Virus record (IMG/VR): IMGVR_UViG_3300048576_000578
Location: 1 to 51,481 of that record
Length of the DNA stretch: 51,481 nt
Strand: one strand, 5' to 3'
Origin: a virus
Taxonomy: Duplodnaviria; Caudoviricetes
In this document: piece by piece, positions 28,333 through 51,481 of the stretch
How the letters are laid out: each line of letters starts with the position of its first letter
How positions within the stretch are numbered: position 1 is the stretch's first letter
Program-made: the position numbers and the translations under genes
Notes under the pieces: model-generated
What the model was told of the DNA's origin: nothing
The model's input: the letters and a program-made list of their open reading frames with translations, nothing else
Databases searched by the model: none

Positions 28333-28650
28333 TCAGGATTGGTTGCCAGAGGCTTCTGCTTCGGCCTTGGCTTTCGCTTCTGCCTCGGCCTTGGCTTTCG
28401 CTTCTGCCTCGGCCTTGGCTTTCGCTTCTGCTTCGGCCTTGGCTTTCGCTTCTGCCTCGGCCTTGGCTTTCGCTTCTGCCTCGGCCTTGGCTTTCGCCTC
28501 TGCCTCGACATCAACCTTGTTTTCTTTCACGCGCGCAAAGCCGCGAGTCACCAGGGATTTCGCTTCGGCGGAATCCTTGATTTCGATTTCGTCACCGGGT
28601 TTGACGTTGCCTTTCCCGGTGACGAGGGTGATCAATGCGATGAGTTTCAT
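28333..28650 (-). CDS. Small head-region protein (lambda gpFI position) with (EAEAKAKA)6 tail
   Basis: Directly after the major capsid gene; ATG at 28650 with GGAGGG RBS. Confidence 0.6.
28352..28507. repeat. 24-bp coding tandem repeat, about 6.5 copies
   Basis: Unit GCTTCTGC(C/T)TCGGCCTTGGCTTTC. Confidence 0.95.
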
Positions 28651-28664
28651 GATCACCCTCCCGA

Positions 28665-33490: not shown

Positions 33491-33550
33491 CCGGCAGATT
33501 GCCGGGATGGGGCGGAAATTTTTAGGGGAAATTTTCCTTAATTATTTCCG
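33491..33550 (-). promoter_or_regulatory. 60-bp repeat, copy 2; putative late promoter of the head operon
   Basis: 58/60 identical to 24609-24668; ends 2 nt before the gpW ATG. Confidence 0.65.
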
Positions 33551-33897
33551 GCTGGAATCATGGCTGCCCACTGGCTGCGCTGGGTTTCCGAATCTTCGCG
33601 GTCGGCCAGCCAGGCCGCGTAGGCTGGCCCGTCGAAGCCGACGAGCCGGAGCCGGCCGGGGAATTCGGCGAGAAGCGCGGCGCAGACGGATTGCTGCGGG
33701 CGCCAGAGCACCGGTTCTCGACCTGGCAGGCTGGCCCAGTCATCGAGCGAGTCATACCAGACCAGCGCGATATCGTCATCAGCCGGGGCGGACGCTATCT
33801 GTTTGACCGCCGCGTCTATTGCGGACTGACGCCATTCGGCCAGGCGGGTGATGCGCTGAGACACATCGGGCGGCACGGCAAATTCGCCGGCTTCCAT
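33538..33897 (-). pseudogene. Aca2/YdiL (DUF1870)-like protein lacking its N-terminal HTH
   Basis: EAG..AVPPDV, LVWYDSLDDW, WRPQQSVCAALLAE resemble Aca2 (WESG..PVPDDV, FYRTLDDY, WRLTQAVAATLFAE, from memory); ORF begins where the HTH ends. Confidence 0.7.
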
Positions 33898-33920
33898 ACT
33901 TCCTATTTCGGAAGTTGCAA
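33898..33920 (-). promoter_or_regulatory. Remnant promoter/operator: -35 TTGCAA plus palindrome ACTTCC-N6-GGAAGT, no intact -10
   Basis: Same AATCCTTG context as the promoter at 35595; fused directly to the truncated aca2-like ORF. Confidence 0.45.
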
Positions 33921-33995
33921 GGATTTTTTCATGTTTTTTTGGTGAGCGGGGTGCCGCCGCACTGATGGATAGCGTAGCCAGCTTTTGGCGACCGG

Positions 33996-34023
33996 AAAGA
34001 AAAAGCCCGCGCTTGGCGGGCTT
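33996..34023 (-). terminator. Intrinsic terminator closing the acr operon
   Basis: AAGCCCGC-CAAGC-GCGGGCTT-TTTCTTT on the minus strand, overlapping the last repeat. Confidence 0.85.
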
Positions 34024-34182
34024 GCTGCCTATCCGGCAGTGATTTCAAAGCTATATCTATTTTTACTAAGCTGCCTGTCCGGCAGTTTTCGAACTCACCA
34101 CGATACCTTTTCTGAGCTGCCTATCCGGCAGTTATTGCTTTCGCGTAATTACTTTTACTAAGCTGCTTATCCAGCAGTTCGG
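34017..34182 (-). CRISPR. Non-canonical mini-array of four type I-F-like repeats with three 18-nt spacers (candidate RNA anti-CRISPR / crRNA-mimic array)
   Basis: Hairpin cores at 34025, 34071, 34117, 34163 (46-bp period). Minus-strand units CCGAA-CTGCTGGATAAGCAG-CTTAGTAA, AATAA-CTGCCGGATAGGCAG-CTCAGAAA, GAAAA-CTGCCGGACAGGCAG-CTTAGTAA, AATCA-CTGCCGGATAGGCAG-CAAGCCCG, versus I-F consensus GTTCA-CTGCC-N5-GGCAG-CT(T/A)AGAAA. Confidence 0.85.
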
Positions 34183-34196
34183 CAATTACACATTCA

Positions 34197-34523
34197 TCAA
34201 GCATTAAAGTCAACGTAGCGTCGAGCGGCCGCGCCGCGCACATCGTCCGGATAGCGATTCTGGTGCATCCAGTCGTGGAATTCATTCGCAATTCGTCGGT
34301 ATTCACGAACATCATCCGCGCGGATCACCCCGCCTGTTTTGAGCAAGCGAAGACACGCCGAAATATGGGCCTTGTCGGCTTCTGTCGGGGAAATGACTAC
34401 CGGCGCTTGAGGCTCCGGTGTGGCAACAACAGTGGGCGCAGAAAGCCGGCGCTGGTACTCATTCATTGCCGCCGAAATCAGCTTCGAGAGATCAGCGGTC
34501 GAGAGTTTTTCAAGTTCGATCAT
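34197..34523 (-). CDS. Hypothetical 108-aa protein, candidate anti-CRISPR/anti-defence
   Basis: ATGA-coupled to the acrIF24-like gene; directly upstream of the repeat array. Confidence 0.6.
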   Translation of the reverse strand: MIELEKLSTADLSKLISAAMNEYQRRLSAPTVVATPEPQAPVVISPTEADKAHISACLRLLKTGGVIRADDVREYRRIANEFHDWMHQNRYPDDVRGAAARRYVDFNA

Positions 34524-35173
34524 TTTTTTACCCCGAGCTTTTTCAGCAGCAGATGCCATGCCGAAAAGCTGATGTTCTGTCGCGTTCTGGCGCCGTCCGC
34601 CGCCGTGTATTTGCGGAAATTCTGAGCTGTCATGCCGACTAGGCCGGCAGCCTTTGCGCCGCTGATGCCGGTAAATGATCCTTCGCAAACGATATGCCGA
34701 AGCTCCCAGCTTGTTGGCGCACGCCACAGTTCCGGATCTTCTGTCACGACTTCACCAGGCAGCAGGTTTTTTACCCAGCATAGCGGCGCGGCGCTGTTCA
34801 TTGACCTCGCGATCGCGTATTCGTCGATAGATACTGGCATCGAATACAGTCGGTTCTCGCTCTGTAGCCAGAATTCGGCGCGATCATCAATCAGGCCGGC
34901 GGTCATTCCGTCGACAATCGAACTTTCGCAAACAAAACCGGCGATCCGCTCACCGTTTTGAAGCAGGTTGATTGTGTGCAGCTCTGTCTTGCTGCGCAGA
35001 TCATTACGCAAGCGGGCGAAACAATCCCCCAGCGACTCGGCGACTTCGTGCCGCGTGTTTCCTTCGACATCGATATTAATGGCCAGTGTCTTCAGGCCGT
35101 AGCTGATATCAGCTTTGCCGCCGGATCTTGGACGGACCTCGAAAGGCCCGACCATGAAGTTTTCTTTCAGCAT
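34520..35173 (-). CDS. acrIF24: AcrIF24-like type I-F anti-CRISPR with C-terminal HTH (Acr-Aca fusion)
   Basis: VGPFEVRP, DDRAEFWL, PVSIDEY and LLPGEV...WRAPTSWELRH.VCEGSFTGISGA...NFRKYTA...RQNISFSAWHLLL..LGVK match P. aeruginosa prophage AcrIF24 as recalled. Confidence 0.88.
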   Translation of the reverse strand: MLKENFMVGPFEVRPRSGGKADISYGLKTLAINIDVEGNTRHEVAESLGDCFARLRNDLRSKTELHTINLLQNGERIAGFVCESSIVDGMTAGLIDDRAEFWLQSENRLYSMPVSIDEYAIARSMNSAAPLCWVKNLLPGEVVTEDPELWRAPTSWELRHIVCEGSFTGISGAKAAGLVGMTAQNFRKYTAADGARTRQNISFSAWHLLLKKLGVKK

Positions 35174-35187
35174 GATCGGGGTTCCTT

Positions 35188-35514
35188 TTATTTTCCGGCG
35201 TTGGACATAAATTCTTCTTCGCTGACGCCGTAAGCTACAGCGAAGGCGGCGCGTGCGGTGGCGTACTTAGCGAGGATCGCGGTGGCGATTGCGAAGCGCT
35301 GCTTGCTGGTCGTTTTTGCATAACGATTGTTGCGGTTGCCGCGGATGGTTGCTGCAATGCTGGCGGCTTTTTCGTCGCCGAGCGTATCGACGATCTTCAG
35401 GACGGTGCTGTCGTCGGCGTAGGATTCGAGAACGTAGCGCTGAGCTTGTTCGCCATTGAATTGATTTTCAGCCCGGACGACTGCGTCGGCAGCGAATTCG
35501 ATGTGCATTGTCAT
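35188..35514 (-). CDS. Hypothetical 108-aa protein, candidate anti-CRISPR
   Basis: First gene behind the operator-controlled promoter; AGGAG RBS; directly upstream of the acrIF24-like gene. Confidence 0.65.
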   Translation of the reverse strand: MTMHIEFAADAVVRAENQFNGEQAQRYVLESYADDSTVLKIVDTLGDEKAASIAATIRGNRNNRYAKTTSKQRFAIATAILAKYATARAAFAVAYGVSEEEFMSNAGK

Positions 35515-35566: not shown

Positions 35567-35595
35567 ATAATAGCGCGATTCGCGCTATATATCAA
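35567..35595 (-). promoter_or_regulatory. acr promoter TTGATA-17-TATTAT with operator palindrome ATAGCGCGA-N-TCGCGCTAT
   Basis: Perfect 9-1-9 inverted repeat at 35570-35588 lying between and overlapping the -35/-10 boxes. Confidence 0.85.
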
Positions 35596-48035: not shown

Positions 48036-48859
48036 TGAGCACGCCGAAATCCCCCGAGAACATGACCGAGAAGGTCCTGGACTGGTTTGAACGCAACCCC
48101 ACCGCGAAGACGCGCTGCGGCCCGTTGAGCAAGGCCTTGAAAGCTGACGCCGGACACCTCGCCACGACCCTGAACAACCTCGCTACGCGAGGCCAACTCG
48201 GCCGGGTGCGGGTCAAGGTCGGTAAGGACGAAGGCGGCACCGGCGGCGAGCAGTGGGAATACTTCATGCCCACCGGCGGATTCATCGCACCCGCGCCGAA
48301 GCCCTACCAGCCGCCCAAGGCATTCCGCCGCGATACGTCGCCTGTCGCTGCAGCGCCGGCCGCACCGGCAGCTACTCAGGTCGCCTCCCAGATCGAAGCA
48401 GCTACCAGCGCCACCCATGAAGAGCTGGCGGCTGCCAGGGCAGAAGCTGACACCATCAAGGTGGACATGGCGCAGAAGCTCGCCGACTGCACGGCTCAGC
48501 TGCAGGCTGCAGAGCAGCAGCGTGACGCCCATTTCGACACCGCCCAGGAATACAAGTCGCAGCTCGATATCGCCGAGCGTGCGGTTGAAGCCTGGATCGG
48601 GCTGGCGCGCGACTTCGGGTGCGAAACGCTGGCCGAACTGCGCGAAAAACTCAACACCAAGAGCAACGCGCCGGCAGCCGCTCCCATTGGCTATCTTGTC
48701 CGCGTCCCCAAGCGCAAGCCCCGCCTCCTGACCAAGCAGGAAACCGCGATCGCCTGCGCCAAGGCAGCCGCGAAAGCGGTCGGCCGCGCCGATGTTCTGG
48801 CGCTTGTGCCGGCTGGAACCGCTCGCCGCCGGGCGGCTGTAAACGTCGAATTCAACTAG
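48035..48859 (+). CDS. Early hypothetical protein (wHTH-like N-terminus, coiled coil)
   Basis: GAGGAG RBS; coupled start. Confidence 0.6.
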   Translation: MSTPKSPENMTEKVLDWFERNPTAKTRCGPLSKALKADAGHLATTLNNLATRGQLGRVRVKVGKDEGGTGGEQWEYFMPTGGFIAPAPKPYQPPKAFRRDTSPVAAAPAAPAATQVASQIEAATSATHEELAAARAEADTIKVDMAQKLADCTAQLQAAEQQRDAHFDTAQEYKSQLDIAERAVEAWIGLARDFGCETLAELREKLNTKSNAPAAAPIGYLVRVPKRKPRLLTKQETAIACAKAAAKAVGRADVLALVPAGTARRRAAVNVEFN

Positions 48860-48888
48860 CCATTATCAACGCTCAAAAGGAGCAAACC

Positions 48889-49245
48889 ATGCAGCTTCAA
48901 CTTCCCCCGCTCGCCGCTGAAGAGATCTACATCGGCGCCATCGGCGATGCCGCCGGCAATCTGCACCACGTCATCCTGCTGCCCGGCGACAACGACGACG
49001 CCACCTGGGAAGCCCAGATGGAATGGGCAAAGAGTATCGGCGGCGACCTGCCGAACCGCATCGAGCAGGCCATGCTGTGGGCCAACCACCGCAACCAATT
49101 CCAAAAGGACTGGTACTGGAGCAACGAGACGCACCACTCCGAGTCCGGCTGGGCCTGGTATCAGCGCTTCAGCGACGGCTTCCAGCACGACGGCTACCGC
49201 AGCAACGAGCTGCGCGCTCGTGCCGTCCGCAGATTGCCCATTTAA
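48889..49245 (+). CDS. DGR target protein 1 (118 aa; DUF1566/CLec-like fold)
   Basis: AAAAGGAG RBS; W...W...GGDLPNRIE, WYWS, AWYQ.F..G, RARAVRR motifs; carries VR1. Confidence 0.9.
   Translation: MQLQLPPLAAEEIYIGAIGDAAGNLHHVILLPGDNDDATWEAQMEWAKSIGGDLPNRIEQAMLWANHRNQFQKDWYWSNETHHSESGWAWYQRFSDGFQHDGYRSNELRARAVRRLPI
49138..49236 (+). repeat. DGR variable repeat VR1
   Basis: 99 bp; 12 mismatches to the TR, all at TR adenines. Confidence 0.97.
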
Positions 49246-49269
49246 CCATTCATCCATTTCGAGGCCGTC

Positions 49270-49743
49270 ATGACCACCATCACGCTTGATTTGATCAAGG
49301 CCGAGCATGCCAAGCTGGCCGACCTGATCGCCGCCTTCGAGAAGCAACAGGAACCGTCCGCGCTCTACTTCCCGGAGGTCACCATCAAACTCGCGCCAGG
49401 CGAGCACTACGCCGGAATCGTGCTCGGCAAGGATGGCGAGGCGAGCCATCACCTGGTGCTGCTTCCCGGCCAGGCCGACGACATCACCTGGGAAAACGCC
49501 ATGGACTGGGCCGGCAGGCAGGGTGGCGAATTCGTCGCCAGCTTGCCCACCCGCCGCGAGCAGTCGCTGCTCTATGCCAACCTCAAGGAAGAATTCGAGG
49601 ATCGCGCCTACTGGTCCTGCGAGGCTCACGATTCCGAGTCCGGCTGGGCCTGGTATCAGCGCTGCAACTACGGCCGCCAGCTCACCAGCTACCGCACCAC
49701 CGAGCTGCGCGCTCGTGCCGTCCGCAGATTGGTCATTGAGTAA
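49270..49743 (+). CDS. DGR target protein 2 (157 aa; DUF1566/CLec-like fold)
   Basis: Paralogue of target 1 (LLPG..DD.TWE..M.WA, LPTRREQ, YWS, RARAVRR); carries VR2. Confidence 0.9.
   Translation: MTTITLDLIKAEHAKLADLIAAFEKQQEPSALYFPEVTIKLAPGEHYAGIVLGKDGEASHHLVLLPGQADDITWENAMDWAGRQGGEFVASLPTRREQSLLYANLKEEFEDRAYWSCEAHDSESGWAWYQRCNYGRQLTSYRTTELRARAVRRLVIE
49633..49731 (+). repeat. DGR variable repeat VR2
   Basis: 99 bp; 13 mismatches to the TR, 12 at adenines and one T>G. Confidence 0.97.
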
Positions 49744-49761
49744 TTTAGTCATTTAGTTAGC

Positions 49762-50136
49762 ATGGCCACCCATACCCATCTTCCCATCTACAAGGTCGCC
49801 TATGACCTGCTCGATGTCGTCACGAGTCTCGTCAAGAACATGCAGCGGGACTTCAAGCGCTCCATCGGGGAGAAGATCAGCACCGAGTGCATCGAAATCA
49901 CGGTGCTGATCTTTCGGGCTAATGTTGCCCAGGACAAGGCGACTCACCTGCTGGAGCTGATCGAGCGCCTGCAGGTCGCCGAACTGATGCTGCGCCTGTC
50001 CATGGACAAGCGCCTCATTTCCAAGGCGGCCTACGCCAAGGCGATTGAACTCACCACCAGCATCGGTAAGCAGGCAAACGGGTGGCGCCGCGCCGCACAT
50101 CGCCCGCTTCATGGAGGTCACGGCCGCCATGACTGA
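49762..50136 (+). CDS. avd: DGR accessory variability determinant (Avd, four-helix bundle)
   Basis: LPIYKVAYDL...IGEKI...IGKQANGW; between the targets and the TR. Confidence 0.88.
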   Translation: MATHTHLPIYKVAYDLLDVVTSLVKNMQRDFKRSIGEKISTECIEITVLIFRANVAQDKATHLLELIERLQVAELMLRLSMDKRLISKAAYAKAIELTTSIGKQANGWRRAAHRPLHGGHGRHD

Positions 50137-50277
50137 GCGATCTTTCAATCTGGTCGTGCCGCTGGCTCACGAGGCCACCGCCATGCGCACCACGGATACC
50201 GCCGGCAGCGCGCCGGGCCGGTCCGGCGCAGTTTCCCGGCTGAACGCTCGGCCGGGCGACGTAGAAAGCACGATTGA

Positions 50278-50376
50278 TCCGAGTCCGGCTGGGCCTGGTA
50301 TCAGAACTTCAACAACGGCAACCAGAACAACAACAACCGCAACAACGAGCTGCGCGCTCGTGCCGTCCGCAGATTG
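50278..50376 (+). ncRNA. DGR template repeat TR
   Basis: 99 bp with ten AAC codons in the VR reading frame; upstream GC-rich hairpins at about 50208-50256. Confidence 0.96.
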
Positions 50377-51481
50377 GAGCGCACCCGCTGATTTCACCTT
50401 CCAGGAACTGGCCCAGGCCTACTTCGACTGCCGCCGCACCAAGCGCAATAGCGCCAGCGCGCTGGCCTTCGAAGAGCGCCTGGAGCAGAACCTGCGCAAC
50501 CTTTATGACGAAATGCATGCCGGCAGCTACAAGCCCGGCCGCAGCATATGCTTCGTCATCACCCGCCCGAAGGCCCGCGAGGTCTGGGCGGCCACTTTCC
50601 GCGACCGGATCGTGCATCACCTGCTGCACAACCGGATCGCGCCCAGGTTCTACGCCCGCTTCATCGCCGATAGCTGCGCCTGTATCCCTGGACGCGGCAC
50701 CCTGTACGCCGCCAACCGGCTGGAATCCAAGGTTCGCAGCATCACCCAGAACTGGCGCCGGCCGGCGTACTACCTCAAATGCGACCTCGCTAACTTCTTC
50801 GTCGCGATCGACAAGCGCATTGTCCGCGGACTGCTCGCCAAGCAGATCTCGGAACCCTACTGGATGGCGCTGGCCGAAACGATCCTGTTCCACGACCCGC
50901 GCCAGGACTTCGAATACCGTGGCGACCCAGCCCTGCTGCAGCGCGTCCCGCAGCACAAGCGACTGAGCAGCCAGCCGGCACATTGCGGCCTGCCGATCGG
51001 CAACCTCAGCAGCCAGTTTTTTGCCAACGTCTATCTCGATGTGCTCGACCAGTACGTCAAGCACGGCCTGCGCTGCCGGCATTACATCCGTTACGTCGAC
51101 GACTTCGTACTGCTGCACGAATCGCCGCAATGGCTCAACGACGCCAGGATCAAGATCGACAGCCTGCTGCAAGAAAAGCTGGCGGCGCGCCTCAACCCCA
51201 AGAAAACCATCCTGCAGCCCATCGAGCGCGGCATTGATTTCGCCGGCCAGGTGATCAAGCCATGGCGCCGCACGCTGCGCCGCAGAACGTTCAATGAAGC
51301 CATCAGCCGAATTCGCGCCACGGCGGCCGCCAATCTGTTCGAGACGGCAAACAGCTACTTCGGCCTGCTGCGCCAGGCAACACACAGCCACCACGACCGC
51401 ACCTGCCTGAGCAATGAACTGCGCAAACGCGGCCACAGCATCAAATCCGACCTGACCAAGACCTACCGGAGCCCGTCATGA
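50360..51481 (+). CDS. DGR reverse transcriptase (start uncertain: GTG 50360, or ATG 50129/50183)
   Basis: FRDRIVH, LKCDLANFF, GLPIGNLSSQFFANVYL (DGR-type SQ), YIRYVDDF, GIDFAG motifs. Confidence 0.95.
   Translation: MPSADWSAPADFTFQELAQAYFDCRRTKRNSASALAFEERLEQNLRNLYDEMHAGSYKPGRSICFVITRPKAREVWAATFRDRIVHHLLHNRIAPRFYARFIADSCACIPGRGTLYAANRLESKVRSITQNWRRPAYYLKCDLANFFVAIDKRIVRGLLAKQISEPYWMALAETILFHDPRQDFEYRGDPALLQRVPQHKRLSSQPAHCGLPIGNLSSQFFANVYLDVLDQYVKHGLRCRHYIRYVDDFVLLHESPQWLNDARIKIDSLLQEKLAARLNPKKTILQPIERGIDFAGQVIKPWRRTLRRRTFNEAISRIRATAAANLFETANSYFGLLRQATHSHHDRTCLSNELRKRGHSIKSDLTKTYRSPS

Follow-up and report, generated by a model that had tools for sequence, protein, structure and literature searches.

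The systems closest to the locus analyzed here are the CracrIF guides of Liu et al. (bioRxiv 10.1101/2024.10.29.618823), the only literature found that joins AcrIF24 with Cracr. As set out in the text of that preprint, 221 acrIF24-linked CracrIF candidates, 76 of them multi-spacer, span 8 beta- and gammaproteobacterial genera, and the underlying AcrIF24 tree draws on IMG/VR. Their spacers measure 17–21 nt, compared with 23–27 nt in host guides, and CracrIF1 is 46 nt long. Repression by these short guides is directed at cas or creT promoters and withstands AcrIF24, to which susceptibility increases above 22 nt; a 21-nt guide is found mainly with four Csy3 subunits. AcrIF24 alone sets off CreT2 arrest, which is rescued by CracrIF2.

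A second phage-borne element, RacrIF1, is described as a solitary I-F repeat mimic without a 5′ handle, which forms a Cas6f–Cas7f filament that contains neither Cas5f nor Cas8f (PMC10651486). On the host side, the toxin CreT of Acinetobacter WCHA45 has a start-codon hairpin that is reported to be essential, with a 4:12 pair required for toxicity (PMC10097628).

An array of type I-F hairpins behind acrIF24

The window, by which we mean the whole 51,481-nt stretch of viral DNA that was analyzed, carries on its minus strand an array of four type I-F hairpins, each with a 5-bp stem and a 5-nt loop (plus-strand starts 34025, 34071, 34117, and 34163). Read on the minus strand, the hairpins follow CTGCC-GGA(T/C)A-GGCAG, and they are spaced at 46, 46, and 46 bp. 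Three pairs of hairpins 40–64 nt apart are present in the window; not a single such pair arose when it was shuffled 200 times by dinucleotide blocks. Repeat 1 (34155..34182) starts 14 nt past the stop codon of the upstream gene (stop at 34197) and has a T-A swap in its stem, as do several host creA first repeats; it is identical to the array repeat of G489, an Azonexus-genus genome, at 21 of 28 positions. It is followed by spacer 1 (34137..34154), repeat 2 (34109..34136), spacer 2 (34091..34108), repeat 3 (34063..34090), which has the GGACA loop variant also seen in hosts, and spacer 3 (34045..34062). All three spacers are 18 nt long, and the 8-nt 5′ handles of units 1–3 are, in order, CTTAGTAA, CTCAGAAA, and CTTAGTAA. 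Repeat 4 (34025..34044) consists of the hairpin half only, which would serve the last guide as its 3′ handle; it has no 5′ handle of its own and leads straight into a predicted intrinsic terminator (33996..34023; stem 34023–34003 plus a U-run, z −3.7).

This anatomy bears out an earlier note on this DNA, which had described four hairpins at an exact 46-bp period on the strand of the operon, a compensatory T-A pair (here located in the first minus-strand hairpin), 18-nt spacers with near-canonical 5′ handles, and a position about 15 nt behind the last operon gene, closed by a terminator. The absence of cas genes, also claimed there, holds for csy3, csy4, and cas1, none of which was detected in this provirus record (estimated to be 83% complete). 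In an Rfam search of the window, no family covered the array.

The acrIF24 gene (34520..35173, minus strand; 217 aa) lies ~340 nt upstream of the array on the same strand, and its product matches PDB 7ELM chain U over residues 22–217 (phmmer, E 1.4e-49). A 108-aa gene on either side completes the minus-strand operon. The first (35188..35514) has 9 homologs and no Pfam, PHROG, PDB, or Atlas match. In L023, one of the two closest relatives of this locus, its slot is filled by another gene; as judged from sequence, such an exchange fits what is expected of an Acr slot, and the gene is a candidate Acr. The second (34197..34523) has 11 homologs and no family above threshold, and a similar gene sits at the same place in L023 and in the other close relative, L022. 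An integrase-SAM assignment for the 108-aa genes was rejected, as the Atlas matches (0.90–0.92) covered just 61–90 of 256 features. Since the homologs of both genes are close ones only, the label “anti-CRISPR operon” given in the earlier note depends on a single Acr: AcrIF24 is present, while no other operon gene encodes a recognizable one. On one side, the cassette is bordered by a Mor-like gene, itself preceded by the large terminase, and on the other by the adaptor and portal genes. A small gene in the head region (28333–28656) contains a tandem AKAEAE-type repeat.

A consensus scan predicted a sigma-70 promoter for the operon at 35567..35595 on the minus strand (TTGATA-17-TATTAT, 10 of 12 consensus matches). 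An 8-bp inverted repeat (35570..35588) starts within the −35/−10 interval, reaches into the −10 box, and is a predicted AcrIF24 operator; compared by eye, each half-site agrees at 6 of 7 positions with the IR23-24 operator probe bound by AcrIF24 in P. aeruginosa (PMC9001735). On the 3′ side of the terminator, and probably outside the array transcript, lies a truncated Aca2-like ORF (33538..33897, minus strand) that lacks the first ~36 profile positions (PF08965 positions 37–112, E 8e-10). A full-length Aca2-like copy is found upstream of the operon in L022. Within 33538–33935, the truncated gene is closely preceded by a short inverted repeat and the hexamer TTGCAA, perhaps a promoter fused to it by a deletion.

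The array follows the last gene and precedes the terminator, and the consensus scan revealed no separate promoter for it; this could suggest a cis element or remnant, in which a Cas6f cut at the 3′ end of the mRNA tunes acr expression or senses Csy and the spacers are irrelevant. However, a single hairpin would do for this purpose, and the operon already contains a predicted AcrIF24 operator. As such a role would also leave the host-guide match, the target match, and the spacer conservation presented below unexplained, we regard it as improbable.

Probable host guide template and promoter target of spacer 1

From the family, 401 candidate host genomes were sampled, and from the genus 129, with each species represented once; a repeated draw from the family gave the first 400 again. 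In a screen with 712 distinct host spacers, those of Azonexus sp. R2A61, which carries a full I-F locus, matched the phage at 32/32, 29/29, and 31/32 positions with CC flanks; a weaker match (26/28, from G324) lies in the terminase. Most of the host-spacer matches fall in a reverse-transcriptase/Avd cassette of the phage, which weakens the host assignment, because this retroelement cassette may move between phages. The region involved (48800–51481) encodes a reverse transcriptase, an Avd-like gene, an Rfam RT-15 RNA, and an Lcl-like gene, contains a segment repeated at 49204, 49701, and 50344, and is likely a diversity-generating retroelement.

Comparison of the repeats with those of host I-F arrays, which the earlier note had proposed, also pointed to Azonexus. 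Phage and host repeats are identical at 19–25 of 28 positions, and repeat 2 equals the G489 repeat throughout positions 5–28 (24/24). Array loops in this genus are GGATA or GGACA, and both variants are present in the phage array. The supposed decay of the GTTC part of the repeat calls for a correction: the repeat of the likely host itself starts with CGTCA or CTTCA instead of GTTCA. From these sequence comparisons, we consider Azonexus the likely, though not proven, host of the phage.

A csy1 gene scored above the cut-off in 11 of the 129 genus genomes, and at two of these 11 csy1 loci (G001 and G489) csy1 is immediately preceded by a two-repeat guide gene encoded on the other strand. The spacers of these creA-like guides are 24 nt (G001) and 27 nt (G489) long. 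Spacer 1 appears to be a shortened mimic of the G489 guide, as it is equal to it at 16 of 18 nt, with mismatches at positions 6 and 12 only. These two positions are reported to be unpaired with the target in Csy (bioRxiv 10.64898/2026.06.02.729485). Similarity of spacer 1 to the host guide reaches 9 nt only when unpaired position 6 is skipped. Position 18 is presumably unpaired too, by the same 6-nt period, which leaves 15 pairing positions in an 18-nt spacer.

In a search of 107 overlapping cas-locus stretches (80,372 CC sites), spacer 1 matched a CC-flanked site in locus L171 at 14 of 15 pairing positions, a score reached by 2 of 1,000 shuffled spacers. The single pairing mismatch is at position 9, where contiguous PAM-proximal pairing stops, and it is common to the G489 host guide. 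Across the whole G489 genome, only the target site and the guide gene were within 2 mismatches of spacer 1, with 0 hits for a reversed control. Read by eye, the PAM of the target abuts a TTGACT (−35) hexamer, with a TAACCT box downstream. The predicted target is a creT-like promoter. A prophage of Azonexus sp. R2A61, the L023 relative, independently gave a comparable result, with its spacer 4 matching the site of its own host at 13 of 15 pairing positions with a perfect seed (4 of 1,000 shuffles; 16 of 1,000 when total matches alone are counted). In this strain, the four-spacer prophage array (L023, 3997–4200) and a matching host cassette (L098, 11240–11400) form a natural test pair within a single genome. 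The search of host cas promoters with a CC PAM, as the earlier note had advised, was productive for spacer 1, while spacers 2 and 3 gave no significant target. Judging from these matches, spacer 1 likely redirects the host CRISPR complex to silence a predicted toxin promoter.

The predicted toxin lies in the gap between cas3 and csy1, where the target promoter is followed by a 15-codon mini-ORF, with a hairpin and then a strong SD ahead of it and a GC-rich hairpin behind it, and finally by csy1; the SD and mini-ORF are downstream of the CreA target and divergent from creA. As far as WCHA45 CreTA is described in PMC10097628, the G001 and G489 cassettes share with it a two-repeat guide gene in divergent orientation, a target flanked by CC, and an SD with a mini-ORF, and codon 3 (AGC) and codon 5 (CAT) are common to both. 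The Azonexus-genus mini-ORF is set apart by its 15 codons, by TTA TTA at codons 8–9, and by forming 4 of the 5 start-hairpin pairs. A creA-like gene was present in 15 of 16 loci examined, 12 of the 15 having a mini-ORF with rare codons at or beside positions 8–9, in a set where L236 nearly duplicates L104 and where L096 comes from Comamonas and needs a CTG start. A creA-like gene with an SD and a WCHA45-CreT-related mini-ORF is found upstream of csy1 in L097, L171, L119, L104, L106, L111, L116, L122, L123, L128, L236, and L096.

All five pairs of the start-codon hairpin are complete in 7 of 11 loci checked; in both Azonexus-genus copies (G001 and G489), 4 of 5 pairs are formed and the missing one is the 4:12 pair that WCHA45 CreT needs for toxicity, so that the csy operon could be what the promoter drives instead. 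By sequence, the RNA behind the promoter is likely, but not surely, a CreT-type toxin, the alternative being a promoter that mainly feeds the csy genes. Either target fits the Cracr definition.

Codons 8–9 exchange among rare codons (TTA TTA, AGA AGA, TTA ATA, and AGA TTA); at this place, AGA AGG, AGA AGA, or AGA AGT is found in the Acinetobacter entries. In the long ORFs of these loci, no codons are rarer than TTA (1.3 per 1,000) and AGA (1.8 per 1,000). One could tentatively propose that the array disarms a WCHA45-type RNA toxin widespread in the Azonexus family, in which the rare codons 8–9 form a stalling or tRNA-trapping element, but we find this combined proposal doubtful. The account of WCHA45 CreT in PMC10097628 names sensitivity to synonymous changes for codons 2, 3, and 5 only, which counts against a role for codons 8–9, and a stalling or tRNA-trapping role is not flagged there for this toxin family. 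The only literature found on rare codons of CreT/CreA in type I-F was the P. aeruginosa CreTA preprint (bioRxiv 10.64898/2026.06.02.729485). If the proposal is true, phage guides against a WCHA45-type toxin would have their first demonstrated case here, and spacers 2 and 3 may aim at guard promoters new to science.

Spacer conservation and proposed mechanism

For the two other spacers, the same 107 overlapping cas-locus stretches gave best matches of 11/15 for spacer 2 (984 of 1,000 shuffles as good) and 12/15 with a broken seed for spacer 3 (144 of 1,000). Matches of spacer 2 over 8 PAM-proximal positions in cas loci were rejected, as they fall in GC-rich, apparently coding sequence and are at chance level. 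The spacer 3 site, in G134, overlaps the creA target of that host on the other strand; as its seed fails at position 8 and 144 of 1,000 shuffles equal it, it was kept as a lead only. Whole-genome patterns for spacers 2 and 3 in the 129 genomes gave scattered matches in 82 and 84 genomes, and the reversed control produced many matches as well. Self-targeting within the phage was discarded, with a best score of 10/15 per spacer, taken as chance. Spacers 2 and 3 likely address other cassette variants in related hosts.

That two spacers have no matched target, in a repeat–spacer layout with handles, would also be seen in an ordinary mini-array that steers Cas2-3 to cleave a rival phage or plasmid. 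However, the spacers are 18 nt long, compared with 32 nt in host I-F arrays, and the sole target identified, in the cas-locus stretches, is a promoter of the host that is matched in part, making such a role extremely unlikely. Canonical I-F arrays combine identical 28-nt repeats with 32-nt spacers, which gives host arrays a 60-bp period; at 46 bp, the phage array is not one of these.

An AcrIF24 profile built from 33 sequences, together with one direct search, yielded 73 acrIF24 loci. In line with a further suggestion of the earlier note, the neighborhoods of these loci were searched for similar arrays with a pattern of our own, and I-F repeat mimics were found near 49 of the 73, a redundant set in which several loci are the same contig. 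The closest relatives are L022 (77% identity, two spacers) and L023 (82%, four spacers), and between them these prophages contain counterparts of all three window spacers: spacer 2 matches L023 spacer 3 at 14 of 18 positions, and spacer 3 matches spacers in L022 (14/18) and L023 (13/18). When viral contigs were scanned for a handle together with a seed, the contig of L022 was the only one to yield a further array. Further short-spacer I-F arrays were noted in L239 (G353), L049, L012, and L009; among them are arrays of four or five units and arrays whose spacers are near-duplicates.

The spacers are shared by phages with different portal families (phrog_21 versus phrog_68, with L023 differing from the window). 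Between phages, four spacer pairs, selected by eye and not independent of one another, show 14 changes in all, 8 of them at position 6, 12, or 18 (binomial p 0.0007). Such natural variation at unpaired positions supports base-pairing, a line of support that needs no experiment.

This pattern bears on the possibility that the array is a decoy, whose RNAs only soak up Cas6f and Csy subunits and whose resemblance to a host guide is a relic of creA capture. Capture from creA is plausible because repeat 1 has the stem swap of creA first repeats. The target search was negative for two of the three spacers, and non-targeting crRNAs are reported to lower interference (PMC10651486). However, a decoy gives no reason for the enrichment of changes at unpaired positions, nor for spacers kept across phages of different portal families, and the 5′ handle is retained, contrary to RacrIF1. 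We therefore consider a pure decoy unlikely. The earlier note had left the choice between decoys and cleavage-free repression; repression is favored, given that spacer 1 copies a creA-like guide, that its promoter target is flanked by a PAM, and that changes concentrate at unpaired positions.

Rather, we propose, with a probability of roughly 0.8, that this is a CracrIF array whose 46-nt guides repress host promoters without cutting, guide 1 keeping a CreT-type toxin silent. The array would be transcribed together with acrIF24, and host Cas6f would cut at each stem base to release three guides of 8 + 18 + 20 = 46 nt. The release of three such mini-crRNAs alongside a protein Acr, as the earlier note had foreseen, is likely right. 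The guides would load short Csy complexes with fewer Csy3 subunits, which would bind the CC-flanked site and occlude RNA polymerase without cleavage. Going by the results of Liu et al. (bioRxiv 10.1101/2024.10.29.618823) as presented in the preprint, a complex with an 18-nt spacer should remain unbound by AcrIF24. AcrIF24 would disable both the 32-nt immune guides and the 24–27-nt antitoxin guide of the host, whereas the phage guide would persist because its short complex evades AcrIF24; it would then take over repression of the toxin, and abortive infection would be prevented. As a likely by-product, the guides would also compete for Csy subunits.

Comparison with described guide RNAs and toxins

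The array fits the CracrIF class as described by Liu et al. (bioRxiv 10.1101/2024.10.29.618823) and would not be a new kind of element. It is carried by a mobile element and is not part of a CRISPR-Cas locus, is linked to acrIF24, and has a multi-spacer layout without cas genes. Its handle-flanked spacers, at 18 nt compared with 24 and 27 nt in the host guides, fall in the 17–21-nt range, and the predicted product is 46 nt. Spacer 1 resembles a longer host CreA/CreR and has a CC-flanked promoter target in an I-F locus. The novelty that the earlier note had seen in a multi-unit acrIF24 array does not stand, as the preprint describes and tests such arrays; this one may already be among its tabulated candidates. 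The surprise is modest because the concept has been described.

What is new concerns one guide, for which a host template, a target, and a candidate toxin family were found. Together, they provide a clean case of the Cracr model outside Pseudomonas, which could be used to test the spacer-length rule for AcrIF24 escape at 18 nt within an array, and they extend the Acinetobacter CreT family to Betaproteobacteria through a candidate toxin. Compared with the cases presented by Liu et al., the likely host is Azonexus, a name absent from the main text of the preprint; a creT promoter of the WCHA45 type is predicted as the target, instead of that of the proline-codon CreT1/2 of P. aeruginosa; an extra 108-aa gene separates acrIF24 from the array; and our analysis is one of sequence. 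Relative to the host CreTA systems, as described for WCHA45 and for CreTA1/2 of P. aeruginosa (bioRxiv 10.64898/2026.06.02.729485), the phage carries a shortened guide and no toxin.

Like RacrIF1, as characterized in PMC10651486, the array is carried by a phage, mimics I-F repeats in the setting of acr genes, and is a predicted Cas6f substrate. The “Racr” label suggested by the earlier note is nevertheless wrong, because RacrIF1 acts by lacking the 5′ handle, which these units keep. Unlike the solitary RacrIF1, the phage units are arrayed in four repeats, with handles on all three units and a spacer that has a target.
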